Both the position numbers and the translations under genes were made by a program. A stretch of 64,000 nucleotides of DNA from Candidatus Omnitrophota bacterium (lineage in GTDB: Bacteria; Omnitrophota; Gorgyraeia; JAGLLT01). The DNA is taken from positions 37,476 through 101,475 of the forward strand of contig DAOVJY010000005.1 of the NCBI GenBank assembly GCA_030632085.1, read 5' to 3'. The notes under the pieces are model-generated. The model was not told the DNA's origin, did not search any database, and worked only from the letters and a program-made list of their open reading frames with translations. The stretch's first letter is position 1. Every line of letters begins with the position of its first letter. Shown piece after piece: positions 36,962 through 54,855 of this stretch.

Positions 36962-36990
36962 CTTTAATACACCATGTGTTTATTGGCGCA

Positions 36991-37138: not shown

Positions 37139-37170
37139 AAAACTCCACTTAACTTGATTAATAACATTTG

Positions 37171-37294
37171 AGATCTCACACCCGCCCTTGGCAGGTTCGA
37201 GATCCAATTTGCTTGTTGAAATTACACGTAAAAGATCTCTCGCCCGTCTTTGGCGAGTTCGAGATCCAATTTGCTTGTTGAAATTGTACAAATT
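37171..37294 (+). repeat. Tandem ~60-nt leader repeat (2 units) immediately 5' of tRNA-Ser(UGA)
   Basis: Two units of AGATCTC-N17-GTTCGAGATCCAATTTGCTTGTTGAAATT; the same arrangement precedes the second tRNA-Ser at 56511-56607. Confidence 0.5.
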
Positions 37295-37382
37295 GGAGGA
37301 GTGGCTGAGCGGTTGAAAGCGGCGGTCTTGAAAACCGTTGTGCCGAAAGGTACCGTGGGTTCAAATCCTACCTCCTCCGCCA
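37295..37382 (+). tRNA. tRNA-Ser (anticodon UGA)
   Basis: Cloverleaf by eye: acceptor GGAGGAG/CTCCTCC, 3-bp D-stem, anticodon loop CTTGAAA, long variable arm, T-loop TTCAAAT, ends GCCA. Confidence 0.85.
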
Positions 37383-39053
37383 GTGATACCAATTCGAACC
37401 TTTGCGTTTCTCGTCTAAGAGCGCAAGGGTTTGAATTTTTGTATGGGCGACATAGTACGGCTTGAATTTCTTTTCGCCGCTATGGATAATCTGATAAAAG
37501 TCTGAATCCTCATCAGATATTGGCTCAAGCCGAATTGGCCCAAGAACCTCTTTAAGAGCCAGGCCGGCTGTAACAGTATTCTTATTCAGTGTTTCGCGTA
37601 ATCTCTCAAGTCTTAAGTTAATCCATTCCTTTGCAGGCGCCTTAAAGGTATTCTGCTGCTGAAATTCCAACGAGACAATTTCCTGTTTTAGGCTTTCACT
37701 CCTCTTTTCTGTTTCATTTAGAGCCTGTGATACTGATTTAGAAAAGTTTCCTATTTTAATGTAGTTAAGATAATTTTGTAGTTCAGATAGAAGCTTATCA
37801 AGCCGCGATTTCTTTTTTTTAATCAATTCAGGCACTTCATTCAGGCCGGAAGTAACAAGCTTTTCTACATTTTTATAAACGTAGCTTAAATTTTCAGCGG
37901 TTAATATCTTTTGCTTTAACTCTGAGATAATGGTTTGTTCTATTCTTTTGCGCGGCACAAGAAGGTTATTATTGCAGGTTTTTCTTCTGGCGTTATAGCA
38001 CCCGTAATAACCGCTTCCTTTTCCGCTAATAAGGACGATAGCTCCGCCGCAGATATCACATTTCATTAGCCCTGAAAGTAAGTAATTGGGACTGCCATAC
38101 ACATAACTTCTTTGCTTTGTTTGACTATTTTTTTCATTTTTTCTTATAGGCCATGTTCCCTTGATTTCTACCCATCTTTTTTGAGCCTTTCTCCATGTTT
38201 CCTTGTCAATTATAATTAATTCTTTTTTAAATATAGACAATTGTTCTTCTTTTGGGCGAGGAACCTTTTTTATTCTTCCCGTTATAGGATCTCTGAGATT
38301 TTTGTACTTTCTCCATATCCATAAGCCGGTATACTTTTCATTTTTTAAAATTCTACTTATAGTTGATATGTTCCATCCACCGGGACGCCCTCTTTTAGTT
38401 GGAATCTTATTTTTGTTAAGGTCCCGCGCTATTTTATTTAAACTTTTTCCTTCAATAAAGTTTTTATATATATCGCTAACAACATCAACTTCAGCGGGAT
38501 TTATTTTATGAACCATTCCTTCGTATTTAGGCTGCCCCTTCTTGTTTAGCTTTAATTCACCCGAGGGCTGGGTGTGATAGCCATAAACATGCTCGCCGGT
38601 GCTGAAACCTCTTATTTTTTGCCCCTCTAAGCCGCGCATTGTCTTTTTCTTAAGGTCATCAAGATATAACTCATTCATAAGCCCCCGTATATGAATACCT
38701 AATTTAGAATTTTCATCATCTGTTACAATGCCATCTGAAACAGAGATTATTTTAATTTGAAGGTAGTTAAATTTAAGCACAAGTGTCAACATTTGATGAT
38801 TGCTTCGAGAAAGACGGGATAAGTCATCTACCATAACCGCTTCAAATTCCTTATTTTCAGCAGCTATTTGCAGAGATTGTAATGCGGGACGATTAATAAT
38901 AGAACCTGAAATTGCTTCATCAATATAGATATGTCTATTTTTAACACTCATATCGTTGTCACGCGCGTAATTTTTACAGACTCTAATTTGATCATCAATG
39001 CTCTTTTCACTTTGATTTTCAGAAGAATACCTTGCGTATATTGCTACTTTCAT
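37368..39053 (-). CDS. Large serine recombinase (integrase)
   Basis: N-terminal resolvase catalytic domain ([12 protein letters not shown]), recombinase and zinc-ribbon domains (CDICGG...[10 protein letters not shown]); 3' end overlaps tRNA-Ser by 15 nt. Confidence 0.85.
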
Positions 39054-39122
39054 TTTAACCCCCCTTAATGACTACATGATTTACGAAAATCTTTGATTTT
39101 CTTAAATCGTTTGTAGGAATTA

Positions 39123-39164
39123 ATCCCCCCTGATTTGTTTTGCGGCGCAAAACATGTGGGGGAT
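39123..39164. promoter_or_regulatory. 42-bp imperfect palindrome upstream of the integrase (candidate recombinase site)
   Basis: ATCCCCCC-TGATTTG-TTTTGCG-G-CGCAAAA-CATGT-GGGGGAT: outer and inner arms are reverse complements. Could alternatively be an operator or terminator hairpin. Confidence 0.3.
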
Positions 39165-39566
39165 ATAAATTATATCAATTTGTCAATTTCAGCACCTATC
39201 TTCATTTGAAAAAGTTTCAGGATTTTGTTTGGCTATGCTGATGTATTCATCGGCAATTATAGAAGCCGCAACATCCAATAGTTCTTGAACAGAGAGATTA
39301 TCAGCCCAGCTTAAATTTATTGGTTGAATTGTTGGATTATTTAGCAGTTTTGTTTTCACTAAAAAACCTCTTGATATTAAAAAATCCAGCGTTATAATAG
39401 CATTATAAGGAAAGCAATAAATTAATAGTTATCTAATAATATAATAATAGCATTATATTGATAGTATGTCAATAGAAATCATCAACAATTTTAAGTGCAC
39501 CTAAAAGATTTATATTGATCCTGAAGTCGAAGGCTGAAGGATCTTAGAATCTAAAGTGAGGGGATT

Positions 39567-39761
39567 ATGCTTTCAAAAAACATAAAACAACTAAGAAAGA
39601 AACACAATTTATCTCAGGAACAGCTTGCCCAAAAAGCGGGAATTACTTACAGCACGCTTATTAAAATAGAGTCGGGGGCAAACAAAAATCCTACGCTCGA
39701 AACTCTAAGAAAAATTTCTAATGTTTTTAAAATTAAGATAGATGAGTTGGTTGGGAGGTAG
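39567..39761 (+). CDS. XRE-family HTH transcriptional regulator
   Basis: Cro/CI-type HTH (LSQEQLAQKAGITYSTLIKIESG). Confidence 0.8.
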   Translation: MLSKNIKQLRKKHNLSQEQLAQKAGITYSTLIKIESGANKNPTLETLRKISNVFKIKIDELVGR

Positions 39762-40512
39762 TAATTGGAGAAGGATAGGTATGAGTAATAAAAAATTATA
39801 TTCAAACGCTATTCGGAACTGGCCAGAGGAGGACCGGCCCCGAGAAAAGTTGCTCAAATACGGAGAACATACGTTGAGCAATGCGGAATTAATAGCCATT
39901 CTTATCAGAATAGGCACACCGGGCAAAAGTGCTGTTGATATTGCTCGGGAATTATTACAAAAATTTAAAACACTGCGTTCCTTAAGCAGTATGGATATTA
40001 CAGAATTCAGACAAATAACCGGATTAAAAGACGCTAAGATCACTCAGATAAAAGCAGCAGTCGAATTAGGAAGAAGATTGATGAGCGAAGAAAAGGCCTT
40101 TATCGGCACTGTAAAAAAATCGTCCGATGTGGCTCATTTTCTTATGCCGCTTATGCGGGATTTAAAAAGAGAGTGTTTTAAACTCTTATTGCTGGATAAA
40201 AGGAACAGCATCACCAATATCCTTGATATTGAAAAAGGCTCTGTTGATAAAGTAAGTCCATCAATACGTGAAATACTTCATGTCGCCATAAAATTTCAGG
40301 CTCCAGGGCTTATCATTGTTCATAATCATCCGTCCGGCGACATTGAACCAAGTGATGCGGACAAATCCTTAACCCGTGCATTAGTTATCGCTGCTTCATC
40401 AATGGAATTGCGCGTATTCGATCACATCATTGTTGGAGAAAATCAACATTTCAGCTTTACTGATAAGGGATTAATAGAAGAATATGAAATGCTGGCAGTA
40501 AGTAAAATATAA
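39742..40512 (+). CDS. radC: RadC-like JAB/MPN domain protein
   Basis: HhH N-terminal region; JAMM motif HNHPSGD; probable true start at ATG 39781 (MSNKKLY) with RBS. Confidence 0.85.
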   Translation: MSWLGGSNWRRIGMSNKKLYSNAIRNWPEEDRPREKLLKYGEHTLSNAELIAILIRIGTPGKSAVDIARELLQKFKTLRSLSSMDITEFRQITGLKDAKITQIKAAVELGRRLMSEEKAFIGTVKKSSDVAHFLMPLMRDLKRECFKLLLLDKRNSITNILDIEKGSVDKVSPSIREILHVAIKFQAPGLIIVHNHPSGDIEPSDADKSLTRALVIAASSMELRVFDHIIVGENQHFSFTDKGLIEEYEMLAVSKI

Positions 40513-40527
40513 GAGGAGGGGCCAACC

Positions 40528-42582
40528 GTGACAAAATTATCAAAAAGGGACCGTAAAAGAATCAGCGAACTATTGCGGGCTGGCGAAGGAATCCCTCTTG
40601 ATTACAAAAATATTCTTTTCCCTCCGGAAAAGAGAGAATACGAGTTAGTCTATGCCGGCAAAGAAAGGGAAGAAGATATCCTTGCTGATACTATGGCCGT
40701 TCCTCTTCAAGCAGTGAAAACTTTTGGAAAAAACGGTAAGGGTTGGACAAATAAACTTATCTTTGGTGATAACCTCCAGATTATGAAAAAGCTACTCGAC
40801 GATCCAGAGGTAAATGGCCGAGTAAAACTGATCTATATTGACCCCCCGTTTGCTACGAAACAAGAGTTTCGGGGAAGCCAGGATCAAAAAGCATATCAGG
40901 ATAAAATCGCAGGGGCAGCGTTTATTGAGTTTTTAAGAAAACGGCTCATTTCTCTTAGAGAATTGTTAAGTAAAGATGGTGCAATTTTTGTTCATCTCGA
41001 TTACCGCAAAAAACATTATATAAAAGCAATAATGGATGAAGTATTTGGAGAAAACAATTTTAGAAATGAAATTGCTGTAAATAGAGTGAAAAAGAATGTC
41101 AGAGAAAGAGAACTCGTGAAAAAGCTAAACGAGGAGTTTGATACAATCTTATTCTATTCAAAAAATGCATCATTGTTGATTTTGCCTCCAGATAAAGAAG
41201 ATTATAAGCCTGATAGGTGGCATGCTTTTGATGCCGCAGGTTTTAGAAATGGAATGGATTACGAAATATTTGGTTTTAAGCCAGCAACAACCAGACATTG
41301 GCATTGGACAAAAGAAAAAGCCTATGAAGCAAAGAAAAATTATGAGGTGTGGAAAAGCACGCTTTCAAGCAAAATGACTCTTGGAGAATATTGGGTTAAA
41401 ATGGGGCAAAAACTTAGATTTGTTAGGCCAAGTCAAAATACGAGGAAGCCAGAATATTTTATTCCGGCTACTGAACAAACTCTTTGCAATAATTTGTGGA
41501 ATGATTTATCAGCATACTCTTTTCAGCATAGTTACCCGACAGAAAAAAACGAAAAACTTCTTAAACGAATTATAAATATGGCTACATCAAAGGGGGATAT
41601 CGTACTTGATGCTTTTGCCGGTTCTGGTACGACGTGTGTAGTTGCGGAAAAGTTAGGCTGCCGTTGGATTGGTATTGATTGCGGCAAGCTGGCGATTTAC
41701 ACTATCCAGAAAAGAATGCTTAACTTGAAATCTGAAATCGGCAATAAAGGAAAAAAATTAAATCCCAAACCGTTTACGCTTTATAATGCCGGTCTTTATG
41801 ATTTTCCAAAGTTAAAAAAACTTCCCTGGCAGGATTGGCGCATCTTTGCCTTACATCTTTTTAATTGCCACGACGATAAACATACCGTCTCAGGCATTGA
41901 GCTTGATGGTTACAAAGGAAGGACAGATGTTCTTGTTTTTAATCATCAGCAAGACGGCGGCGTGATTCTTGACTATGGTTTTATTGATGATTTACATTCC
42001 ATGCTTGGCTCAAAAACAGGTAAACAATTTTTTATTATCGTGCCGGCGGCCAGTGTGACATTCTTGGAAGACTACATTGATAGGGGCAATACTCGTTACT
42101 ATGTTCTGCGTATACCGTATTCCATAATAAACGAATTGCATAATCGTGCCTTTGAAGCCATAAAACAGCCTATTGATGAAACCCAGGTCAACGATACCGT
42201 TGACGCCGTGGGTTTTGATTTCATCCGGCAGCCAAAGGTAGAATGCGAATATTTTACTAAAGATGATACTGCCACCATCAAAATAAAAACTTTTAAAAGC
42301 GAGGCAATGACCAAAGGAGTGAGCATTCTTAGCAATAGAGAATCTCTTTCTATGGTAATGGTAGATTTCAATTATGCTGGTGAAATTTTTAATTTAAAAA
42401 AAGTGTATTACGCCAGTGAGATAGAAAAAAATAAGTGGGGAATTCATCTCCCTGTTGAATCAATTAAGAGCCAGCTTATGATCATTTATCTGGATATCTA
42501 TGGCAATGAATACCGCGAGATTAAAACATTAAAAGATTTTAAACCCTTTGAGAATAGGAAAAAAGTAAAAGGGAGAAAATAG
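40528..42582 (+). CDS. Type III restriction-modification Mod-like DNA methyltransferase (N6-adenine/N4-cytosine, beta class)
   Basis: GTG start with RBS; catalytic DPPF (LIYIDPPFAT) precedes AdoMet motif FAGSGTT. Confidence 0.8.
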   Translation: MTKLSKRDRKRISELLRAGEGIPLDYKNILFPPEKREYELVYAGKEREEDILADTMAVPLQAVKTFGKNGKGWTNKLIFGDNLQIMKKLLDDPEVNGRVKLIYIDPPFATKQEFRGSQDQKAYQDKIAGAAFIEFLRKRLISLRELLSKDGAIFVHLDYRKKHYIKAIMDEVFGENNFRNEIAVNRVKKNVRERELVKKLNEEFDTILFYSKNASLLILPPDKEDYKPDRWHAFDAAGFRNGMDYEIFGFKPATTRHWHWTKEKAYEAKKNYEVWKSTLSSKMTLGEYWVKMGQKLRFVRPSQNTRKPEYFIPATEQTLCNNLWNDLSAYSFQHSYPTEKNEKLLKRIINMATSKGDIVLDAFAGSGTTCVVAEKLGCRWIGIDCGKLAIYTIQKRMLNLKSEIGNKGKKLNPKPFTLYNAGLYDFPKLKKLPWQDWRIFALHLFNCHDDKHTVSGIELDGYKGRTDVLVFNHQQDGGVILDYGFIDDLHSMLGSKTGKQFFIIVPAASVTFLEDYIDRGNTRYYVLRIPYSIINELHNRAFEAIKQPIDETQVNDTVDAVGFDFIRQPKVECEYFTKDDTATIKIKTFKSEAMTKGVSILSNRESLSMVMVDFNYAGEIFNLKKVYYASEIEKNKWGIHLPVESIKSQLMIIYLDIYGNEYREIKTLKDFKPFENRKKVKGRK

Positions 42583-42583
42583 C

Positions 42584-45118
42584 GTGCCGGATCAAAAACG
42601 ATTTCTTAACCAGGATTTAGTGTTAAGGGTTACTGAAAACATTAATCTTTCTGTATTTGATATTAATAAGTATGAGGGTTTCATTGATGCTCTATGCGGT
42701 GATCGCGACTATCAGAAAGAAGCTATCCGAGCAACCCTTCGCTATCTACTCGGTGATCAATACCGCAATCTTTCCGCCCTTGCGGAAGAAAATCTAAAGT
42801 CTAATATAATCTTGCAAGATTTATATGGCTCATTTAATGAAATGAAAAAACACCTCCAGTTTTCCAATAAGCTTTCCTGTTCTCTGGACATGGCCACCGG
42901 CACCGGAAAAAGCTATGTAATCTACGCTATTGCGCGCATTATGCTGGCTGAAGGTGTTGTGGATCACGTTCTTGTGGTGTGTCCTTCCACCACCATAGAA
43001 ACAGGTCTTATGGAAAAATTTAGACTGCTTTCTGGTGATGCGACATTACGAGATCTTCTTCCAGACAACTCTATCATTAAAAATCCCCACATTATCAATG
43101 CCACCGAAAGCATAGCGACCGGTGCAATCTGCGTGGAAAACTGCCATGCTCTTTATGAACATGTAAAATCATCCATCCGCGAAAGCCTTGCCGGAAAAGG
43201 AGAGCGTACACTTATCGTTAATGATGAAACACACCATGTATACAATCAAACCGGGAAAGATTTCAAAAAATGGAAAGAATTTATCCTGGAGAAAGAGTTT
43301 AATTTCAAATACATCGTGGGACTTTCTGGAACTTGTTATATCAATGATGAATATTTTACTGATGTCATCAGTCGTTATTCTCTTAAGGAGGCTATCGAAC
43401 AAGGCTTTATAAAAACAATTGATTATGTTGCTCAAGATACATCTACTACCCAGAATGAAAAATTTCAAAAAATATATGACAACCACATTGAAAACAAAAA
43501 CACCAAATACCGCTTAATAAAGCCTCTTACCATTTTAATCACAAAAGACATCCGCGCCTGCAACAAACTTGCCGAAGATTTAATAAAGTTCCTTTCAAAA
43601 AAAGAAGGCATTTCCGTAGACGATGCTTCTCAGAAAGTATTAGAAGTAACTTCTTCGCCAAAACACAAAGAAAATGTTTGTAAACTTACAGAAGTAGACA
43701 GAAAAAATTGTCCTATAGAGTGGATTGCCTCAGTAAGTATGTTAACCGAAGGTTGGGATGTAAAAAATGTTTTTCAAATCGTTCCTCATGAAGAACGCGC
43801 TTTTAATAGTAAACTTCTTATTGCTCAAGTACTAGGACGGGGCTTAAGGATTCCGGAAGTGTATCTTGGCCAAAGACCGGTGGTTACCGTATTTAATCAT
43901 GATCGCTGGTCTAGCAGGATAAAGCACCTTGTTGATGAAGTGCTCGAAATAGAAAATAGAATCTACTCCTATCCCGTAAAAAAAAGACCTGACTACAACT
44001 TTTATATCCACCAGATTGATTATGCCCGTTTAAAAGAAACCGAAGAATACAAACAAGAAAAGGAATACGAATTTAAAAAAGGGTTTATCACCTTCATCAG
44101 GCAAGCCCCAGCGCTTGAACGAGAAACAGAATATATTCGCGTAACCACACAAGAAATCAGAAAAAAGAAGACGCTTGTCACATACAAAATGTTCTCCATA
44201 GAAGAAATTGCCGAACAGATATATAATCGTTTTAGATCAATCGATATGGAAACGGCCGTGTCAGATATGCCCACTAACTATACAAACAAATACAGCATCG
44301 ACTGGTTGAAAGTCCTCATTAAGAAATCTTTGGAACGTATCGGCGAGAAAGGTAGCCAGGTCAGCGATGAAAACAGGCAAAGGATATACCAGGCATTTGG
44401 CGTTCTTCATCGATCGGCCGCCAAAGCCGTCCGTTATAAAATGTCCCCAAAGGCCTTGGTTAAAATTAAAACGCAGGGGCGAAAAAAGTGCAGTGCTGGT
44501 TTTGCGTCCTTAAGGCGCGGCGACGCTACTATCTTCTGGGACGATAATTCAAAAAACCTGTGCGCAGAAGAAGACATAAATTTTATAAAAGAACTCAAAA
44601 CTCAAAAAGACGAACTTCCTGGCAGCGCAATGCAATATGTATCAAATGCCTACCATTTCAAAACCCCTTTAGGCATTGCAATCGCCAGCCATAAACCAGA
44701 ACGCCTTTTTATCCGCGGACTTGTCAAGGAGGAAAACGCCAAAATAATTGACAGCTGGATCAAATCAACCGATCAAGAATTCTATCCTATTGATTATTCA
44801 TGGAGAAAAGGAGAGCATCCTAAACGTGCACGTTTCAATCCGGATTTTTTTATTAAAGTTGGCAAGTCCATCCTTGTGGCAGAAATAAAAGGCGATGAAG
44901 AAATCAAAGATCCTTCTGATGAAAACAAAGCAAAATATAAAGCAGCTAAAAGGCACTTTGCTATCTTGAACAAGCAACAATCAGAGTTCAACTATTTTTT
45001 TAATTTCTTAACTCCCGACGATTACGACTACTATTTCAATCACCTGCGTAAAAAAAACTTTACATTTAACTCAAAACTCGATGCAGAACTTGATAAAAAT
45101 GGTAATGGCAAAAAATAA
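42584..45118 (+). CDS. Type III restriction enzyme Res subunit (SF2 helicase-nuclease)
   Basis: Walker A MATGTGKS, DEAH-like NDETHH, helicase C-terminal motifs; directly follows mod with 1-nt gap. Confidence 0.8.
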   Translation: MPDQKRFLNQDLVLRVTENINLSVFDINKYEGFIDALCGDRDYQKEAIRATLRYLLGDQYRNLSALAEENLKSNIILQDLYGSFNEMKKHLQFSNKLSCSLDMATGTGKSYVIYAIARIMLAEGVVDHVLVVCPSTTIETGLMEKFRLLSGDATLRDLLPDNSIIKNPHIINATESIATGAICVENCHALYEHVKSSIRESLAGKGERTLIVNDETHHVYNQTGKDFKKWKEFILEKEFNFKYIVGLSGTCYINDEYFTDVISRYSLKEAIEQGFIKTIDYVAQDTSTTQNEKFQKIYDNHIENKNTKYRLIKPLTILITKDIRACNKLAEDLIKFLSKKEGISVDDASQKVLEVTSSPKHKENVCKLTEVDRKNCPIEWIASVSMLTEGWDVKNVFQIVPHEERAFNSKLLIAQVLGRGLRIPEVYLGQRPVVTVFNHDRWSSRIKHLVDEVLEIENRIYSYPVKKRPDYNFYIHQIDYARLKETEEYKQEKEYEFKKGFITFIRQAPALERETEYIRVTTQEIRKKKTLVTYKMFSIEEIAEQIYNRFRSIDMETAVSDMPTNYTNKYSIDWLKVLIKKSLERIGEKGSQVSDENRQRIYQAFGVLHRSAAKAVRYKMSPKALVKIKTQGRKKCSAGFASLRRGDATIFWDDNSKNLCAEEDINFIKELKTQKDELPGSAMQYVSNAYHFKTPLGIAIASHKPERLFIRGLVKEENAKIIDSWIKSTDQEFYPIDYSWRKGEHPKRARFNPDFFIKVGKSILVAEIKGDEEIKDPSDENKAKYKAAKRHFAILNKQQSEFNYFFNFLTPDDYDYYFNHLRKKNFTFNSKLDAELDKNGNGKK

Positions 45119-45252
45119 CCTGAAGGGAAAAAGGGGGAAATGGGAACAGGCCTAATTAATATTGCTAAAATAATTGACAGGAATTTTAGAAAACAGTAGC
45201 CTTGGTAAAAAAAGTAATTATTGTGTCCCCGGATTCTGCAACGAACCTTTAA

Positions 45253-46518: not shown

Positions 46519-48629
46519 AGGGAAATAAATTTCGGACACGTGCCAGACTTATTCAACAATTAGGTCTTCAGTTAATCAAGAATGAGGGTATTGCGCTTTT
46601 GGAATTAGTTAAAAATTCTTATGATGCAGATGCTTCATTTTGTACAGTAGAAATGAATAAGGTTAATATTCCTCAAAAGGGTTCTATTGTTATTACAGAT
46701 GATGGAGAGGGGATGGATGACGATATTTTACGCTCTGCCTGGCTTGAGATTGGGACAAGTCACAAAGAAGAATTAGCCTCTAATCCGGAAACCAAACGTA
46801 CAGACAAATTCAAGAGATTACGTTTAGGAGAAAAGGGAATTGGGAGACTTGGAGTTCATAGATTAGGGAAGTTTATAAAAATTATTACTAAAAGGGGCGA
46901 ATATGAATATGTTCTCGAAATTGATTGGGACAAATTTGAGCAAAAAAAATATATAGAAGATGTTGAGATTGTTATAAAAAGGCGTACTCCTGAAATCTTT
47001 GAGAAAAAAGAATCAGGGACAAAGATCATTATTACTAAATTACGAATTGCTTGGACACGAAAAAGAGTGCGTGAGTGTTGTAGGGCAATCACTTCTTTAA
47101 ATTCCCCTTTTCAGGACAAAACATCATTCAAGGCAACTCTTAATATTGATAATAAAGATTGGATAAAGGGATTGCTTGATTTTAATAATATTAAAAAATA
47201 TAAACTTTTTGAGTTTTCAATATGCATGGAAAAAAATGAGATAACAGAATTCAATTATAAATTTATTCCGTGGAGTACAATGCCTAAGTTAAAAGTGAGG
47301 CATATTACCAAGGATAACAAAGAAATAAAGTCTGTGCTGAGAATGGTATATAAAGATAAGGAAACTAGAGAATATCAAGATATAGATTTGTCAAAGCATA
47401 AAATTGGTCCAGTTCAATTTAAAGGTGTGATCTTTGATAGAGATGCGCGTGTTTTAGAATTGGGAGTTCAAGATAAAAGCGGTTTAAAGAAATATTTAGA
47501 TGCAAATGGGGGTATTAGGGTTTTTAGAGACAATATGCGCGTACTGGATTATGGTGAGCCAGGGAATGATTGGCTTGACTTGGGCGGAAGACGTGTTAAT
47601 GTTCCAACAAAAAGAATAAGTAATAACATTATAATTGGGGGAGTTTTTCTCAATCGTGCTAAAAGTAGTGACCTTAAAGAAAAAGCTAACAGAGAAGGGT
47701 TCCTTGAAGATGATGCTTATGATGAACTTGTTAAAGCAGTCCTCTATGCAATAGATAAGCTTGAAACATTCAGAAAGACAGATAAAGATTTATTAAGAAA
47801 ATATTATGGCCCTCAAAAAAATATTGAGCCAGTAATCACATCAATTGCAGAGCTAAAAGATATTGTTGAAAAAAATGTTAAAGAGAAAAATGTCCAGAAT
47901 ACGATCAATGTATACCTTGACCGTATAGAGCAGGATTATGAACGAATTACTGAAAGCTTAATTAAAAGTGCCGGAGCTGGATTAAATCTTATCGTTGTGA
48001 TACATCAGATAGAGAAAATAATTAAAGATATTAAAGCTGCACTTAAAAGTAAGGCGGTTAATAAAAGTATTTTGGGAAGAGTTGAAGATCTTGCTTCTCT
48101 TGTCGAAGGATATAGTATTCTCATAAAAAATTCTGAAAAAAAAGAGCGCAACTTAAAAGGTATAATAAATCAGTCATTATTTAATACAAAATTTCGCTTT
48201 GAAGCGCATGGCATAAATGTTAGGAAAGAATATGAGTCAAAAAGAAAGGGATTTGATGCTATTTGTTCGGAAGGACACGTTTTGAATGCCCTGATGAATC
48301 TTTTTGATAATTCTATATGGTGGCTGGGATATTCAAAAACTAAAAATCCAGAAATTTATATCGATGTTTCTGATGCAGTGCCTGGGGGCTATGTAAGCAT
48401 TATTATTGCAGATAATGGCCCGGGTTTCTCAATGCCGGTAGAAGAGCTTACGAAACCATTTGTGAGTAATAAGCCGGGAGGTATGGGAATAGGACTTCAC
48501 CTTACAAATGAAATCATGAAGTCTCTAAAAGGAAGATTGGTTTTTGATGTGGAGGAGTATTTTGATATACCGTCTAAATATAAAAATGGTGCAGTAATCG
48601 CTCTGGCATTTAAGAAAGAGGAGAAATGA
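46515..48629 (+). CDS. Dual Bergerat-fold ATPase: N-terminal MutL/MORC-type GHKL domain and C-terminal histidine-kinase-type HATPase_c domain
   Basis: N-terminal ELVKNSYDADA, DDGEGM, GEKGIGRLG; C-terminal NALMNLFDNS, IADNGPGF, GGMGIGLHL. ATGA start-stop overlap with dcm. Confidence 0.6.
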   Translation: MKGNKFRTRARLIQQLGLQLIKNEGIALLELVKNSYDADASFCTVEMNKVNIPQKGSIVITDDGEGMDDDILRSAWLEIGTSHKEELASNPETKRTDKFKRLRLGEKGIGRLGVHRLGKFIKIITKRGEYEYVLEIDWDKFEQKKYIEDVEIVIKRRTPEIFEKKESGTKIIITKLRIAWTRKRVRECCRAITSLNSPFQDKTSFKATLNIDNKDWIKGLLDFNNIKKYKLFEFSICMEKNEITEFNYKFIPWSTMPKLKVRHITKDNKEIKSVLRMVYKDKETREYQDIDLSKHKIGPVQFKGVIFDRDARVLELGVQDKSGLKKYLDANGGIRVFRDNMRVLDYGEPGNDWLDLGGRRVNVPTKRISNNIIIGGVFLNRAKSSDLKEKANREGFLEDDAYDELVKAVLYAIDKLETFRKTDKDLLRKYYGPQKNIEPVITSIAELKDIVEKNVKEKNVQNTINVYLDRIEQDYERITESLIKSAGAGLNLIVVIHQIEKIIKDIKAALKSKAVNKSILGRVEDLASLVEGYSILIKNSEKKERNLKGIINQSLFNTKFRFEAHGINVRKEYESKRKGFDAICSEGHVLNALMNLFDNSIWWLGYSKTKNPEIYIDVSDAVPGGYVSIIIADNGPGFSMPVEELTKPFVSNKPGGMGIGLHLTNEIMKSLKGRLVFDVEEYFDIPSKYKNGAVIALAFKKEEK

Positions 48630-49918
48630 TGCAGTTATCTAAAAATGGGAAAGTTGTGATTGTCGATAATGTTTTTACAGAAGCTAAACCTTTACTTGAT
48701 GTTTTAAATATGAACCAAATCCCCTATTTATATTTTGATGGTAAGGTTGATTCTTTACCTGAAACTCCTTGCAAAGGGATTAGATTTGTTTTTCTTGATA
48801 TAGCTTTGGAAGGAATGGATGGCGCAGATACAAAAACAAAAGCTTCAGCAATCGTAGGGATATTAGAAAAAATTATTTCGAAGGATAATGGTCCTTATGC
48901 GATTATTTTCTGGACAAAACATCCCGAAGTTATTGAAAGAACTCTTAAAAACTGTCAAATAAGGGGAATAAAGCCTGTAATTTCACTTGATCTAGATAAA
49001 TCAGAATGTAAAGAAGGTGAGACGTACTCTCTTAAGGCGATTTTAGAAAAATTAAAAACAAAGGCAGAAAAATTGGGTCCATATAGTTTATATATAATGT
49101 GGGAAAATATAGCTGCTGATTCAGGGACTGAATTTATTAACAGTTTTGCTAACATCTTTGAATTTGATGATAACTGGAGTGAAAACACAAGGCATCTTTT
49201 TTATCGTCTATATAAGGCTTATACTGAAAAAAATGAGGTTTCAGATGATAAAGACAAGATATTGTGCGTTCTGCAACTCATTAATCGAAGCTTTAAGGAT
49301 TTGCTAGATAATAATACTGTTAACTGTAGAGAAAAATTAAATTTATTTGAATTCCCATCGACTCCTACTGACGAAGAAGAAAAGAGGACTTTTTCCCAGA
49401 AAATCAATGAAATAATTTCCGATGAAATAATCGCTAAAATAAATAATAGTCTTTTTATTATTGATAATCCTGATTTCTCGCAATTATCCACAGTTGTTTT
49501 TAAATATGCTGACGAAGAATTGAAAAATATTTTTTTGGATAAATGTTTTGAAAAGATTTCAGAAGTAGCTAAAGCATCTGCCCAACTTTGTCGTCTTGTG
49601 ATAACACCTCAATGTGATATATGTCAAGATAAAGCCATATTGCATAGAGTCCTGTATGGAATTATTTTCAACGAAGATGATGCCACTAAATGTAGAAAAG
49701 GGCCGTTATTTCCTTTTGGTCCCTTTTATTTCCATGATAGTTCCAAGTCGATAGTTTTTCACTTGCAATCAATAACTACTTGTAAGAAAGATGAATTGTG
49801 TTCTAAAGAGGTGTTATTTGGACTACGAAAAGATTTATTTTTTGATATACAGGCCAATTCTGCAAATCATGTTAACCGACATGGTAATTTTGCAATAAAA
49901 AAGCAATTTAAAATATAA
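48626..49918 (+). CDS. Uncharacterised protein with receiver (CheY)-like N-terminal domain and unknown Cys-rich C-terminal domain
   Basis: VVIVDN...RFVFLDIALEG...IIFWTKHPE resembles REC beta1/beta3/beta4 elements (inference); ATGA overlap with upstream ATPase gene. Confidence 0.35.
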   Translation: MMQLSKNGKVVIVDNVFTEAKPLLDVLNMNQIPYLYFDGKVDSLPETPCKGIRFVFLDIALEGMDGADTKTKASAIVGILEKIISKDNGPYAIIFWTKHPEVIERTLKNCQIRGIKPVISLDLDKSECKEGETYSLKAILEKLKTKAEKLGPYSLYIMWENIAADSGTEFINSFANIFEFDDNWSENTRHLFYRLYKAYTEKNEVSDDKDKILCVLQLINRSFKDLLDNNTVNCREKLNLFEFPSTPTDEEEKRTFSQKINEIISDEIIAKINNSLFIIDNPDFSQLSTVVFKYADEELKNIFLDKCFEKISEVAKASAQLCRLVITPQCDICQDKAILHRVLYGIIFNEDDATKCRKGPLFPFGPFYFHDSSKSIVFHLQSITTCKKDELCSKEVLFGLRKDLFFDIQANSANHVNRHGNFAIKKQFKI

Positions 49919-49919
49919 C

Positions 49920-50093
49920 GTGGTTATTGTGCATGTATTCAACTTTGAAAATAGTGTCAGAAATAAATTATTTTTATGGTTTAAGAAAAATGCACGTTCA
50001 TTTCCATGGCGAACTATTAAAGACCCCTATCGTTTGATGGTTGCCGAGTTCATAAAAAAAGGGGTCAGAGTCATTTTTCATTCTGGTAGATAA
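49920..50093 (+). pseudogene. N-terminal fragment of a MutY/Nth-family (HhH-GPD) DNA glycosylase
   Basis: Translation ...LFLWFKKNARSFPWRTIKDPYRLMVAEFI then degenerates and stops; matches N-terminal signature of MutY/Mig-type glycosylases. Not in ORF track. Confidence 0.35.
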
Positions 50094-50495
50094 ATGTTGT
50101 ATCGCCAGATTTTCGCATGTTCCCAGATTTATTGGGATGTGTCCCTATTAAAATGGAGATAGGGGGCGATTCTATTTTAAAATAGTATGTGTTTTGATAA
50201 AAATTAATTTAAAAGAAGTGTAGAATCAGAGGGGACACAATACTAATTTTAGTAATAAAACAGAAGGCAAATAATAAATAGGTATCGTGTCACCAGATTT
50301 TTAGAAAATACATAATTGTTAGGAAGAATTTCCGCAAAACAACTTTGTCGATAAAATATTTTTCCAAAAAGCCAAGTATTTATTCTTTATATTAAAACGA
50401 CTTATCAAGCAAAAGCTAGCTTCAAATTCACATAATGTCTGATTATAGGATCCTGAGGTTCTTATTTATATTTTGTTTCCCTTTATCTAACTCCG

Positions 50496-52355
50496 TTGTA
50501 TAATAAAAAGAAAAATGGAGGAAAAATGTATATAAAACGAATCGTTATAAAGAATTACCGAAATTTAAAAGATATAGACCTTTCCTTTGGCGCAGGGTTA
50601 ACTTGTATTGTAGGTGAAAACAATTCTGGAAAAAGTAATTTTTTACATGCAATACGGTTGGCCTTAGACATGAATCTGCCGTATTATGTTAGACAGTTAA
50701 CAGAAGATGATTTCGCCAAAGAAGTAGACTTCAGCGTGCCACAACAGATTGTGGTAGGAGTACAATTTACGGATTTTTTTTCAGGTGCAGATGACGATAA
50801 GGTAAAGGAGCACGCTCTAGCGCAAGAGTGGGGTTTGGACGGGGAAACAGCACAAGTATGTTATCGGTTTAGACCTAAAGGTTCAGTGCGTAGGAATATA
50901 GCTTCTGGTGAGCGTGAACCAAAAAATTTAACCATAGAGGATTATGATTCAGAACTAGTAGCTGGGCCGATAGTTTGTGAAGACGGAGGCACAAAAGATT
51001 TGTCAGAGGTTTGTTGGGACGATGATTTTTCAACAGCTGTAAAATTTAATAGGCTATCAACGTATCGAGTAGCATTTTTACAACCTATTCGAGATGTTGA
51101 AGATGATCTGCGCCGACAAGCACGCTCCCCATTGTATAAGCTGATAAAAGTATCGGATATGTCTGATGAAAAGAAAAAAGAACTAATAAAAAAGATAGAT
51201 GATGTAAATAAAGAGATATCATCTGAAGCGGAAATCCAACAAATTGCTCAAGACATAGATGATTCCTTCAGTGCAGCGGTAGGCTCTATATTTAAAATGA
51301 ATACAAAGATAGGCATGATGTCGCCAACCTTTAGAGACATCACCCGCTCTTTAAAAATTTTACTGTCCGGACAGGGGCTGGAAGAGGCGAATATTTCTAG
51401 AAATGGGTTAGGGTTAAATAATATTTTATACATGAGTATGTTGTTGGAATATTACAAGAAACAAGGGGAGCAAGAAGATACCGCTGGCGAATTATTGTTG
51501 ATTGAAGAACCAGAGGCGCATCTACATCCCCAACTGCAAAGAGTCTTGCTGGGAAGATTAGAAAACAAAGAATGTCAAATAATCACGACCAGTCATAGTA
51601 CGCATATTACTTCACGTGTGGATTTAAATGAAGTGATAGTTTTTACGCGAAATACGGAGTATGAGATATCAGCTAAAAGATTGAGTGATAACAATTGGTC
51701 GTCTGATAACGATAAGGATGATTTGGAGAGATATATAGATGCTACAAAATCAGTTTTGTTATTTGCTAAAAAGGTTATTCTGGTAGAGGGAATGGCAGAA
51801 GTTTTCCTGATTCCTTTTTTAGTGAAAAAGATCAAAGAAATAGATCTAGAAGAGCATGGCATATCAATAGTTCCCATTCACGGCGTTCATTTTTCTTCAT
51901 ACTTAAAACTTTTTGGAAATGAAGCTATAAAAAAGAAATGTGCAGTTATAACCGACGGGGATCTAAGGCCTAGCGATTCATTTAATTCGGAAGAGGGGGA
52001 TTTCCCAAGAGTAGATTCTTTGAGAGATTTTGAAAATGACTTTGTAAGGATATTTCATTGTGGAACAACATTTGAAATAGAAACCGCATCTCCCAGCAAT
52101 TTAAAGATGTTCGCAAGTTCAGCTAATGAGCTAGGAGCGCCGCGAGTGGCGAAAGATCTAATGGAAAGCTATAAAAAGAAAAGTGAATTATCTGCGAAAG
52201 AAAAACTAGAAATGAGTAAAAAAGTTTTGAACACCGCAAAAAGGTTTGGTAAGGCACGATATGCACAGATATCATCACGGTATTCACAGTATGCCGAAGA
52301 ATTACCGACATATTTAGATAATGCAATTGATTGGTTGATAGATGAAGCTGACTAG
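50496..52355 (+). CDS. gajA: OLD-family ATP-dependent nuclease (GajA-like: ABC-type ATPase + Toprim)
   Basis: Walker A GENNSGKSN, Walker B LLLIEEPEAHLHP, Toprim residues VILVEGMAE and ITDGD; probable true start ATG 50526 with GGAGG RBS. Confidence 0.8.
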   Translation: MYNKKKNGGKMYIKRIVIKNYRNLKDIDLSFGAGLTCIVGENNSGKSNFLHAIRLALDMNLPYYVRQLTEDDFAKEVDFSVPQQIVVGVQFTDFFSGADDDKVKEHALAQEWGLDGETAQVCYRFRPKGSVRRNIASGEREPKNLTIEDYDSELVAGPIVCEDGGTKDLSEVCWDDDFSTAVKFNRLSTYRVAFLQPIRDVEDDLRRQARSPLYKLIKVSDMSDEKKKELIKKIDDVNKEISSEAEIQQIAQDIDDSFSAAVGSIFKMNTKIGMMSPTFRDITRSLKILLSGQGLEEANISRNGLGLNNILYMSMLLEYYKKQGEQEDTAGELLLIEEPEAHLHPQLQRVLLGRLENKECQIITTSHSTHITSRVDLNEVIVFTRNTEYEISAKRLSDNNWSSDNDKDDLERYIDATKSVLLFAKKVILVEGMAEVFLIPFLVKKIKEIDLEEHGISIVPIHGVHFSSYLKLFGNEAIKKKCAVITDGDLRPSDSFNSEEGDFPRVDSLRDFENDFVRIFHCGTTFEIETASPSNLKMFASSANELGAPRVAKDLMESYKKKSELSAKEKLEMSKKVLNTAKRFGKARYAQISSRYSQYAEELPTYLDNAIDWLIDEAD

Positions 52356-54114
52356 AGAACAGGTAAACGCTGTAAAATGTAGTAGCAATGTTGCTTTGGA
52401 ATCTTGTCCAGGAAGCGGAAAGACAAGAACCATTGTGGCGAAGCTTTTAGAATGCCTGGATGACGTCAGACAAACTACAAGAATGATTAGTTGTATAACA
52501 TATTTGAACTCAGCTGTAAATGAAATTAATCACAGATTAAGTAGTTGTATAACTCATGAAGAGCTAGAAGATTATTATGAGATAGGAACGATACATTCTT
52601 TTTGCCTGAGGAATATCTTTCGGCTAAATTATTGGAGGATAGATAAGTTTTCAGGAGGGTTTGCGATTATAACGCCAGACGATGATGAGTATAAAGAATT
52701 TGTTAGCAATATTATTGAGAATAATTCTCTCGACCCAAAATCATTCGATGACTTCAGCTTTTTGGTGAGAGAAGGCAAGATTTCGGGTAGGATGTCAGAT
52801 AAAGCCGCAAAAGAGTATTGGGAATATCTAGATGATAATAATTTAGTGGACTTTAACGATATAATATATTATTCAGCATGTCTAATACGGGAGAATGAAT
52901 ATATTATCGCTGGTCTCTCAGCAAAATATGCATGGATTTTAGTAGATGAATTTCAAGATACATCTATCCATCAAAAAGAGATCCTCAAAGCTATTTCAGA
53001 TTATAAAAGGACAAAGTTTTTTATTGTAGGGGATCCCTGTCAATCGATTATGGGTTTTGCTGGAGGAAGTTCGCTCTTAATGAAGCAGTTTTCAAAGGAG
53101 ATAGTTGCAAAGAATGATTTTTCATTAACGGGTAATTTCCGGAGTTCCAGTAGAATAATTAATTGTGCTGAAGAATTGCTTCCTCGTGATCCAAAAATGG
53201 ACGCAGTTGGAGAAAATAAATATTATAATCATAGCCCATTATGGATAAGAGCATGTGATTCCTTTTCTGGAATAGATGAATATTTTCTTCCAGCAATTAA
53301 GGAACATAATATTTCTTTAGGAGAATGCGCAATTTTAGCTCCAAATTTTTATATTTTCTTAAAGTTGGCTCCTAAAATGAGAGAAGCTGGCATATCTATA
53401 CTTGGTCCAGGATCACGCCCATACCGTAGGTCAAATCACATAATAGCTCCTTTAATTGAAGAGGTTTGCTTATTTATAGAAACACAGGACATAAAACAGA
53501 TAAAGATTATCCGATATAAAATTTTGGATGTAATTACTATATGCGAAGATAAAGTGGACAAAGATTTCTTTACGTTAAAAGGTGATATTGCTATCTTAAA
53601 AATATTGAACGCAGCAAAGAACTTAAAGAACAAAAATGTAAATGCTAAGCAATTTATTGTATCTTTTTCAGAAGAAATTGCTTCGTTGTTGCATGAGAGA
53701 GGATTCATAAAAAAAGAGGCCATAAGTCATATAGCGACCTCTGGGAAAGGATTAGTTTCTGATATAGAGGAACATTGTTCTGGCGATCCGTATAGTGGAG
53801 ACAATTTAACTATAGAAGATTTAAGCTTATTTAGTATCAATTCTGAGAGCATTAAATTATTAACCTTGCATAGGGCCAAGGGGAGGGAGTTTGATGCTGT
53901 AGCTGTAATATGCGTTCATGATGGATTGATTCCTTATGGCGCCCCTTATGCTGGTAGCGATGAGGAAAATGAATCAAGGCGCTTATTTTATGTTGGCATG
54001 ACAAGGGCTCGTAAATTGCTAATGTTTTTTACAGAGGTGAGGAACCTTAGGAGTCCTTCTCGTTTTCTGACAGAATTATTCCCAGCTGGTCCACACATAA
54101 TAGCTGACGTCTAA
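52342..54114 (+). CDS. gajB: UvrD/PcrA-like SF1 helicase (GajB-like)
   Basis: Walker A GSGKT, DExQD-type LVDEFQDTS, motif III GDPCQSI, motif VI YVGMTRARK; 14-nt overlap with the OLD nuclease gene. Confidence 0.8.
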   Translation: MKLTREQVNAVKCSSNVALESCPGSGKTRTIVAKLLECLDDVRQTTRMISCITYLNSAVNEINHRLSSCITHEELEDYYEIGTIHSFCLRNIFRLNYWRIDKFSGGFAIITPDDDEYKEFVSNIIENNSLDPKSFDDFSFLVREGKISGRMSDKAAKEYWEYLDDNNLVDFNDIIYYSACLIRENEYIIAGLSAKYAWILVDEFQDTSIHQKEILKAISDYKRTKFFIVGDPCQSIMGFAGGSSLLMKQFSKEIVAKNDFSLTGNFRSSSRIINCAEELLPRDPKMDAVGENKYYNHSPLWIRACDSFSGIDEYFLPAIKEHNISLGECAILAPNFYIFLKLAPKMREAGISILGPGSRPYRRSNHIIAPLIEEVCLFIETQDIKQIKIIRYKILDVITICEDKVDKDFFTLKGDIAILKILNAAKNLKNKNVNAKQFIVSFSEEIASLLHERGFIKKEAISHIATSGKGLVSDIEEHCSGDPYSGDNLTIEDLSLFSINSESIKLLTLHRAKGREFDAVAVICVHDGLIPYGAPYAGSDEENESRRLFYVGMTRARKLLMFFTEVRNLRSPSRFLTELFPAGPHIIADV

Positions 54115-54262
54115 TTATACCCACACAATAAAAACTTGTATATAGAGAGATAATGAGGAAAAAATCTATTTTCCTTGATTTTCTATTCGTATTTATTATA
54201 TATAACCGTCTCTTTTGTTCTCAAAGTGATGATACTAAGAATTCCAGAAGCACAATATCTAA

Positions 54263-54466
54263 CTAACCAACAACATTTTTTTTAACATAAATTTCAAAGA
54301 TACCGTTTCTTAGCCTTGTCCCATGTATTTTTGACTTCGGGATCCAGATTTTCATGCCGTTATCTACCAATATAGCTTTATCAGTCTCATGTAAGATGCG
54401 GACTTGAATCCAGATGTATTTTTCGTCAGGGTATAATAGTCTATAAATGTTGAATGGCCGGGGCAT
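54263..54466 (-). CDS. Small hypothetical protein
   Basis: 67-aa ORF directly downstream of the HTH ORF on the same strand; no recognisable motif. Confidence 0.2.
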   Translation of the reverse strand: MPRPFNIYRLLYPDEKYIWIQVRILHETDKAILVDNGMKIWIPKSKIHGTRLRNGIFEIYVKKNVVG

Positions 54467-54470
54467 AGGG

Positions 54471-54668
54471 TTATCTCCTTTTAAATTGACAGGCTTTTTT
54501 GGCAGTATTCTTGCCTATTTTTAAAGCTTTGGCTATTTGCTTGTAAGTCATTCCCAGTAAATGCAATTCACTTGCTTTTTGGGCTAATTTTTGGTATAAA
54601 TAGATTCGTTGGGCGGGTTGAATCTTGATATGAGCCGATATTTCAGCAATAGTTCGAATTGGTTGCAA
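54471..54668 (-). CDS. Small HTH protein, possibly a transposase N-terminal fragment
   Basis: HTH-like LGMTYKQIAKALKIGKNTAKK; only 65 aa, at the distal edge of the island. Confidence 0.25.
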   Translation of the reverse strand: MQPIRTIAEISAHIKIQPAQRIYLYQKLAQKASELHLLGMTYKQIAKALKIGKNTAKKACQFKRR

Positions 54669-54696
54669 CCGCGTCCGCCATTATAGCAAAGAGCCC

Positions 54697-54724
54697 GTAG
54701 TGTAGAGCGTAGGGCAAAGATAGA
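54697..54724. repeat. Copy of dispersed TAGAGCG-core repeat
   Basis: GTAGTGTAGAGCGTAGGGCAAAGATAG followed by CCAAAAAAAGGATTTTAAGGGAAAAGAT; about 70-75% identical to 56738-56830. Confidence 0.45.
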
Positions 54725-54855
54725 TTGCGCAGGGACGAGAACCCAAAAAAAGGATTTTAAGGGAAAAGATTGCTCCCTCTCCTCAGGGGTTTAGGCTTCT
54801 ACTTTAAGGTAATTAAATAGCGCGTTCCTCGATTTTTTGCAAAAATAGGAGGTGC

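Follow-up and report, generated by a model that had tools for sequence, protein, structure and literature searches.

A probable integrative defence island at a tRNA-Ser gene of an Omnitrophota bacterium, with an integrase gene divided at the attachment site

The 64,000-nt stretch of Candidatus Omnitrophota DNA analysed here (the window; coordinates are window positions unless a contig is named) carries a block of anti-phage genes and a large serine recombinase directly beside a tRNA-Ser(UGA) gene. We are confident, short of certainty, that positions 37383-54680 (17,298 bp) form an integrative genomic island that arose when a large serine recombinase joined the attachment (att) site attP to the 3' end of this tRNA gene, splitting the integrase gene (int) in the process. 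The element is of an ordinary kind with mostly textbook cargo; the architecture of its integrase gene is the new part. An earlier note on this DNA had proposed a stacked defence island with a large serine recombinase at tRNA-Ser(UGA). The att sites, a shift in composition, a sibling element in a related organism and assembly-graph evidence all agree with that proposal, and every feature in the note's gene list is present in the order given.

The tRNA gene ends, CCA included, in the 7-bp core TCCGCCA, which recurs at the far end of the island, bearing out the expectation of att core repeats at the junctions. Just inside the cores lie the only two copies of the 11-mer CCAATTCGAAC in the 64 kb, at 37389-37399 (+) and 54652-54662 (-); since they form a unique pair, one at each end and inverted, and relatives have kept the junctions, the arrangement is not a product of chance. 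Joining the ends of the island reconstructs an attP that reads GTTCGAATTGG-TTGCAACCGCG-TCCGCCA-GTGATA-CCAATTCGAAC, an imperfect palindrome of ~50 bp (GTTCGAATTGG-N11-[TC]CGCCA-N6-CCAATTCGAAC) whose 11-bp arms are perfect inverted copies. Its centre of symmetry is the TC that opens the heptamer, and from this sequence symmetry we infer strand exchange at that non-palindromic dinucleotide, 7 nt from the CCA end of the tRNA. In two relatives with imperfect 7-bp identity (L100 and L159), GA/TC is nonetheless retained.

The site thus has the pseudo-palindromic attP, the non-palindromic 2-bp crossover and the short shared core typical of serine integrases. It resembles the sites of A118-type enzymes in these respects and in having the distal motif of attB 5 bp nearer the centre, an inward shift of the zinc-ribbon motif that the structure of an A118-family integrase predicts (PMC3783163). 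The distance to TC is 22 nt from the start of GTTCGAA in the P arm of attP and 17 nt from the start of GTTCAAA, the T-loop motif, in the tRNA. The 5-bp displacement is seen for the B arm of attB only, the B' arm having no such motif.

The far boundary, which the earlier note had left open after a last feature ending at 54668, can now be placed 12 nt further on, at 54680, from the core repeat, the inverted arms, the paralogy of the flanks and the sibling element. From 54679 onward the DNA is 75% identical over 92 nt to the region downstream of the second tRNA-Ser gene, tRNA-Ser(CGA), at 56722-56813, and the 100 nt upstream of the two genes are paralogous too, which makes the unoccupied tRNA-Ser(CGA) locus an internal model of the empty site. 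Similarity between the right end of the element and its sibling on contig L175 stops at 54682, in support of the same boundary. The island contains no further att-like site that would point to tandem accretion, Tandem Repeats Finder returned nothing relevant, and an Rfam scan of the window called the two tRNAs only. The tRNA-Ser(CGA) gene, empty here and used as the target in 10 relatives, has the att geometry of the occupied site (GTTCGAA 17 nt before TC-CGCCA) and is, judged by sequence, a potential secondary attB 19 kb from the island.

The attP site sits within the 3' part of the integrase open reading frame (ORF), with codons for GSNW.HWR and ..PIRT making up its two arms. In the integrated state the ORF overlaps the tRNA gene by 15 nt, and the 3' end of the tRNA, read in antisense, supplies its last four codons (W-R-R-R) and stop. 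When attP is reconstructed, the ORF instead reads in frame through the P arm into a helix-turn-helix (HTH) segment, yielding a protein of 626 aa. Integration replaces ~68 C-terminal codons, comprising a linker and the HTH, by tRNA-antisense codons and leaves the HTH segment (WRTRLQPIRT...) 17 kb from the body of int. As for the small HTH fragments listed in the earlier note, two small minus-strand ORFs do exist at the right end, but the one of 65 aa (54471-54668) is the detached C-terminal segment of the integrase and not a gene fragment; the full segment also includes the P arm of attP.

Relatives of the element are found in both states. Two unintegrated contigs, L089 (integrase P0002, 625 aa) and L090 (P0084, 671 aa), each carry one continuous ORF that aligns over 100% of the reconstruction, and the attP of L089 is almost identical to the reconstructed one. 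No terminal overlaps, which would have indicated circles, were found on these two attP-form contigs. In four integrated relatives with both ends captured (L095, L099, L100 and L110), CGCRGTTGCAACCAATTCGAAC and the HTH segment come in frame after the core, or at least after its GA/TC. The sequences of most other homologues part from the reconstruction immediately behind ...GSNW.HWR: in some the next residues are R-G-W-D-S-N-P..., as translated from the antisense of a tRNA T arm, while others end RR-stop. At the level of sequence, two states of the gene exist and correlate with the integration state. At 2700-2990, contig L090 has two cores 69 nt apart, and the DNA that separates them, a fragment resembling a tRNA 3' end plus another P' arm, keeps the frame of the 671-aa protein; this looks like the scar of an earlier integration or excision.

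The HTH tail has the consensus PIRT..EI.AHIKI.P....LYQKL..KA..L.LLGM[ST]Y..IAKSL....T..KAC, and its third codon positions are ~1.5-fold more variable than the first or second. It weakly matches HTH_23, Sigma70_r4_2, the resolvase HTH_7 and the HTH domains of DeoR and VirB. In an AlphaFold2 (AF2) model of P0002, the tail folds into three helices with a block-mean predicted local distance difference test (pLDDT) score of ~83-87, preceded by a low-confidence stretch of ~50 residues that includes the att-encoded codons; the linker before the HTH is predicted to be disordered. A profile search returned 627 proteins with the tail. The best 120 of them include ~100 short ORFs, where WRT[QR]LQPIRT follows an unrelated flank whose length varies, and nine that continue from the C-terminal sequence of an integrase.

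Such short ORFs raise the alternative of a separate small gene beside attP, coding for example for a regulator or directionality factor, in which case the in-frame continuity of the HTH segment with int would be a by-product of the fixed spacing and sequence of the att arms. Stand-alone HTH ORFs of 65-170 aa are called at many attR junctions, where some host flanks happen to provide an ATG (for instance MRSTRLRAPADIKNWRT...), and a TTG is present in the P arm of six of nine copies. The alternative would also accommodate the attP-form integrases that lack an HTH after the core, described below, and a recurrent ORF of 100 aa that combines only the last 26 integrase residues with the HTH. However, what extends the stand-alone ORFs at the N-terminus is unrelated flank that differs in length from one to the next, and no start codon before the HTH is conserved: L095 and L159 have none ahead of the recognition helix. 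Moreover, the stretch from core to HTH is free of stops in all nine copies examined, and int and HTH form one ORF in both unintegrated contigs. We regard the independent gene as the less probable account, although a serious contender. The recurrent ORFs of ~100 aa (P0157, P0158, P0168, P0182, P0195, P0201 and P0211), which join the last ~26 integrase residues and an intact attP-like site to the HTH, may be integrase-less attP carriers that a sibling integrase can mobilise, or deletion remnants.

The split of the integrase gene may have a regulatory meaning. According to the cycle we propose, the excised element would express Int-linker-HTH (~626 aa), dimers of which would bind attP within their own gene and the tRNA-Ser 3' end, where the T-loop would supply the distal and the acceptor end the proximal motif. 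Strands would be exchanged at TC, and the element-borne CGCCA would regenerate the tRNA, which stays intact because the element supplies an identical CGCCA. Integration would truncate the integrase to 561 aa and leave the HTH segment behind at attR, to be joined to int again on excision, and the cargo on the opposite strand would give layered defence. In the reading that we favour, though only tentatively, the exchange of C-termini would modulate directionality or expression, with orf56, the small ORF upstream of int, as the more conventional candidate for a recombination directionality factor (RDF). The choice between integration and excision would then be partly controlled by the physical state of the int gene, alongside or instead of a separate directionality factor. 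That the split gene serves as a sensor of integration state, its 626-aa and 561-aa isoforms differing in directionality, site choice or autoregulation, is a tentative idea that we think has a minority chance of being right. If this is true, engineered integrase-RDF fusions would have a parallel in nature, and the archaeal 'suicidal' integrases would have their first bacterial analogue among serine integrases; the family would also amount to a set of tRNA-Ser-specific integrases with att sites readable from their own genes.

Evidence for mobility comes from an independent ENA assembly of the same population (ERZ23498525), which is broken at the borders of the island: scaffold_72 (98 kb) ends at 37382, scaffold_3132 (17,401 bp) is identical to 37328-54728, and scaffold_5 (349 kb) starts at 54674. 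The two resulting contig overlaps, each of 55 nt, are bounded exactly by the outer edges of the heptamers. Overlaps of this length at the core edges imply a second path through attB in a de Bruijn graph of k = 55, that is, a variant with an empty site; a variant in attP form would break the graph elsewhere, and a sibling element of this family would have the G beside the core in common on both sides, so that its branch point would lie further in. The contig ends, though not a direct observation, point to an empty-site variant in the same population and hence to current mobility. The empty tRNA-Ser site envisaged in the earlier note is thus suggested by these ends, none having been seen directly. 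Across the family, 24 of the 66 tabulated loci or contigs (mostly from JGI metagenomes) end at most 150 nt past the core, eight of them at 125-128 nt. The largest k in JGI metaSPAdes assemblies is 127; if this value is correct, the ends at 125-128 nt carry the same signature.

Could the island instead be a fixed fossil, integrated once and now immobile, with the contig breaks reflecting strain variation or assembler behaviour? A glycosylase gene in the cargo has decayed, ~130 nt have been inserted between orf56 and int relative to L175, and the element's own attP and attB sequences were not recovered. Against this, three ENA contig ends match the 7-bp core to the base and share equal 55-nt overlaps, no damage is seen in the integrase, the HTH ORF or either att arm, and the breaks shortly past the core recur in 24 of the 66 family loci or contigs, which leaves the fossil an unlikely explanation. 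Far more improbable still, to the point of being negligible, is that the junctions are an assembly chimera and the island lies outside the chromosome. The source is metagenome-derived and one assembly splits the locus into three contigs; yet the island contig begins with 55 nt of tRNA sequence and extends 48 nt past the core into the flank on the other side, an independent Logan contig spans attR, and the same attL is found in L175, from another sample.

The sibling contig L175 (103 kb, JGI) stems from a related organism, with an HMGL-like protein 96% identical and flanking DNA ~84% identical to those of the window. Its tRNA-Ser(UGA), orthologous to the occupied gene of the window, contains an element of 8.6 kb; the attL junctions of the two elements are identical, and the integrase, 561 aa long, is 94% identical and has the same C-terminal end. 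At the DNA level, L175 and the window are 88-92% identical over the tRNA, int, orf56 and the XRE gene on the left, and over orf67, the HTH segment and the core on the right. The middle is unrelated, with methyltransferases of 820 and 280 aa, an SduA_C (Shedu-type) protein and a RadC fragment. Shared ends around a different middle divide the element into a conserved backbone, made up of a left part with int, orf56 and XRE (37383-39757) and a right part with orf67 and the HTH segment (54269-54680), and a slot at 39758-54268 in which cargo is exchanged. The locus accordingly shows what defines an island, namely site-specific insertion with defined junctions and a preserved target gene, together with different occupants at the orthologous site of a related genome. 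The earlier note had held that the same genes at this locus in relatives, with native composition and no recombinase-associated junctions, would speak against an island; L175 has the opposite, different cargo behind the same junctions.

Both orf56, which the earlier note did not mention, and orf67 are conserved backbone genes of the element family. The former is kept upstream of int in most of 80 related loci and in both attP-form contigs, and by position it is a candidate accessory or directionality factor. A segment of ~130 nt between orf56 and the start of int (39070-39199) is absent from L175 and most relatives, in which orf56 ends ~15 nt before int or overlaps it; the extra DNA may affect int expression. 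The XRE regulator expected in the earlier note is present as a 64-aa plus-strand ORF, and not as the 112-aa minus-strand ORF at 39705-40043, which we rejected because it has no family match and overlaps RadC.

The integrase matches PF00239 (1.3e-26), PF07508 (3.8e-22) and PF13408 (4.9e-9), as well as the PHROG 95 integrase (1.5e-82), and the order of its domains—resolvase, recombinase, zinc ribbon—is that of a large serine recombinase. In the AF2 model of P0002, which is of moderate confidence, long helices (368-467) follow right after the zinc ribbon. The enzyme has the domain order of the A118/LI, phiC31, Bxb1 and SPbeta SprA integrases, and these helices may correspond to the long helical, coiled-coil insertion in the zinc-ribbon domain of such enzymes; it differs from them in its tRNA 3'-end target, in an attP that lies within the int ORF, in a C-terminal HTH that integration removes and in an unconserved B' half-site.

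A protein search returned 733 integrase homologues, the best 120 at 59-79% identity, and a scan of JGI metagenomes with the integrase gave the 80 related loci. Where a tRNA was called at the 3' end of the integrase gene, it was tRNA-Ser in 39 of 40 loci (anticodons GCT in 11, GGA in 10, CGA in 10 and TGA in 8) and tRNA-Glu in the other. At each tRNA-bearing locus, the terminal W-R codons are placed such that their TGG coincides exactly with the antisense of the CCA end. Protein-coding genes are the usual targets of the well-studied serine integrases, and tRNA 3' ends are, to our knowledge, a rare class of target for them. The cargo of 25 sibling loci (102 proteins) consists mostly of components of Type I, II and III restriction-modification (R-M) systems, ResIII proteins, AAA_15/OLD-like ATPases and RadC. 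We found no description in the literature of Omnitrophota serine recombinases or of this integrase family, nor a report of a serine integrase gene split by integration, though coverage was incomplete and both negatives are weak evidence.

Regarding the class of the element, comparison of the island ORFs with Pfam, PADLOC and PHROG revealed no relaxase, coupling protein or type IV secretion gene, and an integrative and conjugative element was rejected on these grounds. Nor did these scans of the 17.3 kb turn up genes for capsid, tail, terminase, lysis or replication functions. An origin as a prophage, now degraded, or as a phage satellite, in place of a dedicated defence island, could account for the PHROG matches of the integrase, XRE and RadC proteins. 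We nevertheless consider it very improbable and rejected a prophage assignment. Besides the missing structural, packaging, lysis and replication genes, a scan of 2.9 million IMG/VR contigs contained no relatives of the integrase, which argues against phage origin, and the 25 commonest families in the mostly R-M or defence cargo of the 25 sibling loci include no phage structural family. The description that fits the element best is a non-conjugative integrative island which in its function recalls staphylococcal cassette chromosome (SCC) elements. These non-conjugative elements use the Ccr large serine recombinases to target rlmH near the replication origin and carry variable accessory and R-M cargo. 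The Omnitrophota island is likewise neither conjugative nor phage-like, is integrated site-specifically near the origin (dnaA lies ~10 kb from the insertion site) by a large serine recombinase and has variable R-M cargo; it differs in its tRNA target, and the recombinases are not closely related. We know of no split recombinase gene described for SCC.

The composition of the island departs from its surroundings in the way the earlier note had led us to expect. GC content is 36.1% in the island and 39.3% in the rest of the window (~38% overall), GC at third codon positions is 0.23-0.31 in the GHKL, receiver and Gabija genes as against 0.35-0.46 in core genes, and tetranucleotide distance is raised in the island, with the strongest shift at 46-54 kb.

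Several observations weigh against an active island with a meaningfully split integrase gene. The compositional shift is modest in size. No exact match to the 23-mer of attB was found in JGI metagenome contigs, no read or contig with the attB or attP of the window's own element was seen, and the species representatives of GTDB include no close relative, the best SerS match being 58% (in metagenome-assembled genomes of Candidatus Omnitrophota). The B' flank is unconserved among relatives, which is unusual for the attB of a serine integrase. Neither an RDF nor a transfer or mobilisation function was identified. In addition, the attP-form integrases of one sub-clade stop 11-22 codons past the core, with no HTH homologue detected, which means that the tail is not essential for recombination across the family at large. 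Constraints on the att site, rather than selection on a fusion protein, may be what keeps the frame open across attP.

Division of a recombinase gene by its own attachment site has a precedent. In the SSV1-type 'suicidal' tyrosine integrases of archaeal viruses and plasmids, attP lies in the integrase gene, integration—often into a tRNA gene—partitions that gene, and excision restores it (PMC8371274). The island shares the attP within the int ORF and the partition on integration; it differs in being bacterial and in using a serine rather than a tyrosine enzyme. Whereas the SSV1 split separates parts needed for activity, only the last ~11% (linker and HTH) is lost here and the recognised domains remain in one piece. 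Since the element encodes a serine recombinase whose catalytic body stays whole, we rejected membership of the SSV1 type and treat it as an analogue only. As outlined for an engineered integrase-RDF fusion, a C-terminal addition can set the directionality of a serine integrase (Olorunniji et al. 2017, PMC5737554); the fusion outlined there is artificial and contains a known RDF, in contrast to the generic HTH of the island integrase, which is present in the excised and not in the integrated state.

A further parallel lies in phage immunity. The mycobacteriophages BPs, Brujita and Charlie reportedly have integration-dependent immunity, with attP inside a coding sequence and C-termini that differ by state, which turns the structure of the gene into a sensor of integration; there, a repressor gene is split and the recombinase is a tyrosine enzyme, whereas here it is the serine integrase gene itself. 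What sets the present elements apart as a group is a large and coherent integrase family, with hundreds of members in Omnitrophota-type metagenomes and near-exclusive targeting of tRNA-Ser 3' ends. Because attP lies in the int ORF, the free and integrated states encode different proteins, which makes the long-standing problem of direction control in serine-integrase elements that lack an obvious RDF testable with two defined constructs. Their att sites are predictable from the int ORF, through its GSNW.HWR and PIRT codons, a property useful for mining orthogonal recombinases.

The cargo slot holds three or four anti-phage systems (Table 1). In the Type III-like R-M pair, Mod matches MTase_III models (5e-51) but has MTase_II as its top match, and Res matches ResIII (1.4e-19) and REase_III (4.5e-12). 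The Gabija genes, gajA and gajB, are full length, adjacent and overlapping by 14 nt, with Pfam domains in agreement; the PADLOC alignment of GajA begins at residue 11, which places its likely start at 50526. As in defence islands generally, systems such as Gabija, Type III-like R-M and, in the sibling, Shedu are stacked in one orientation between conserved ends. A point of difference is a very rare trio of genes that is not in PADLOC.

The trio encodes the C5-cytosine methyltransferase Dcm, a 704-aa protein with two GHKL domains and a 430-aa receiver-domain protein. Among 5.8 billion proteins, the 430-aa protein has 11 matches including its own sequence, the 10 others coming from several phyla. 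In both contexts examined (L171 and L172), its homologue comes after Dcm and a ~705-aa GHKL protein sharing 57% identity with that of the window. The trio of L172 (Zixibacteria) is accompanied by a Vsr gene and that of L171 by an HhH-GPD glycosylase, companions that explain the decayed glycosylase of the window as a T:G repair partner of Dcm. This remnant matches only the N-terminus of MutY/Mig (T:G glycosylase) proteins (PDB 8dvp, 2.6e-4; 1kea, 8.6e-3), and BLASTP of the 57-aa fragment against the HhH-GPD gene beside the L171 trio gave no alignment.

Residues 11-130 of the 430-aa protein were modelled by AF2 with a block-mean pLDDT of ~75-92 (mostly at least 83) and matched the receivers of PorX, PmrA, CheY and Spo0F in Foldseek with a probability of ~1. 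With D14, D58 and K125 invariant in the 11 homologues, this identifies a receiver domain, although Pfam Response_reg was not detected in the protein. No fold could be recognised for the C-terminal domain, in which the motifs P-x-C-D, R, D-x-Q and N-R-x-G are invariant. PADLOC does not call the trio as a system: Dcm matches DrmMII (1e-172), and the N-terminus of the GHKL protein weakly matches REase_II. DISARM, which the DrmMII match might suggest, was rejected as PADLOC finds no other Drm component in the island. The trio is plausibly a defence system that is linked to methylation and appears to signal in a two-component-like way. Rare but conserved across phyla, it is a candidate for a new type of defence or R-M-like system.

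Table 1. Features of the island and its surroundings (window positions unless a contig is named).
Feature	Position	Strand	Remarks
yidC, dnaA, dnaN, gyrB, gyrA, PilZ gene, serS, 221-aa membrane protein	gyrA 32016-34460; serS 35013-36299		before tRNA-Ser(UGA)
tRNA-Ser(UGA)	37295-37382	+	Rfam 60 bits; intact after insertion
attL core TCCGCCA	37376-37382		inferred crossover TC at 37376-37377
P' arm of attP, GTGATA + CCAATTCGAAC	37383-37399		minus strand encodes ...GSNWYH of the integrase
Large serine recombinase, integrated form, 561 aa	37368-39053	-	Resolvase, Recombinase, Zn_ribbon_recom
orf56	39189-39359	-	just upstream of int; no family match
XRE/HTH_3 regulator, 64 aa	39567-39761	+	HTH_3 9e-20; divergent from orf56-int; last left-backbone gene
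RadC (UPF0758_N + JAB)	39742-40512	+	likely start M at 39781; first cargo gene; recurs in sibling elements
Type III-like R-M Mod methyltransferase	40528-42582	+	
Type III-like R-M Res (ResIII/SWI2_SNF2 helicase)	42584-45118	+	
Dcm, C5-cytosine methyltransferase	45253-46518	+	first gene of trio
704-aa dual-GHKL protein	46515-48629	+	N-terminal HATPase_c_3 (MORC/Hsp90-like), C-terminal histidine-kinase-type HATPase_c
430-aa receiver-domain protein	48626-49918	+	N-terminal CheY-like receiver; C-terminal domain conserved
MutY/Mig-type HhH-GPD glycosylase remnant, 57 aa	49920-50093	+	first ~50 residues only
Trio loci	window 45253-50093; L171 3850-9299; L172 4894-9713		
GajA (ATPase + OLD-type TOPRIM)	50496-52355	+	5.4e-206
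GajB (UvrD-like helicase)	52342-54114	+	7.4e-170
orf67, 67 aa	54263-54466	-	conserved right-backbone gene; after HTH segment in sibling elements
Detached C-terminal integrase segment	54471-54680	-	in frame with int across reconstructed attP
P arm of attP, GTTCGAATTGG + TTGCAACCGCG	54652-54673		
attR core TCCGCCA	54674-54680		
Original downstream flank of tRNA-Ser(UGA)	54679-54770	+	75% identity to 56722-56813
tRNA-Ser(CGA), unoccupied	56608-56695		
attL junction			...CCTCCTCCGCCA / GTGATACC...
attR junction			...CAACCGCG / TCCGCCA / TTATAGC...
attB junction (predicted)			...CCTCCTCCGCCA / TTATAGCAAAG...
attP junction (reconstructed)			...CAACCGCGTCCGCCA / GTGATACC...

Several minor features surround the two tRNA-Ser genes. 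A unit of ~63 nt occurs twice directly upstream of each (37168-37294 and 56506-56607), with the conserved core GTTCGAGATCCAATTTGCTTGTTGAAATTGTAC. The units fold into a hairpin resembling a T arm (fold z = -2.85), in which compensatory changes distinguish the copies, and match no Rfam family. Because the units are absent before the orthologous tRNA-Ser(UGA) of L175, where the promoter abuts the tRNA, they look like insertions. Those before tRNA-Ser(CGA) are entered by a truncated KDPG/KHG aldolase ORF (56341-56532, 63 aa; PF01081, 1.7e-6). In L175, the aldolase is complete (207 aa) and followed by the tRNA, indicating that the 3' part of the window's gene has been lost.

Just downstream of tRNA-Ser(CGA), an XRE (124 aa)/M78-peptidase (200 aa) pair at 57445-58423 is framed by 32-nt direct repeats (57288-57319 and 58445-58476, 88% identical). 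Short Logan contigs break on both sides of the pair, possibly a small module that was inserted here. Two copies of a 36-nt repeat (GCGCATAGCGTAGAGCGCGTAGCGGATAG...), 89% identical, are found at 36986-37021 and 58594-58629, and related GTAGAGCG motifs occur in the downstream flanks of both tRNA-Ser genes. Further away, a 2,481-aa ORF on the minus strand (14160-21605) lies in the most GC-rich (0.44-0.50) and compositionally deviant part of the window.

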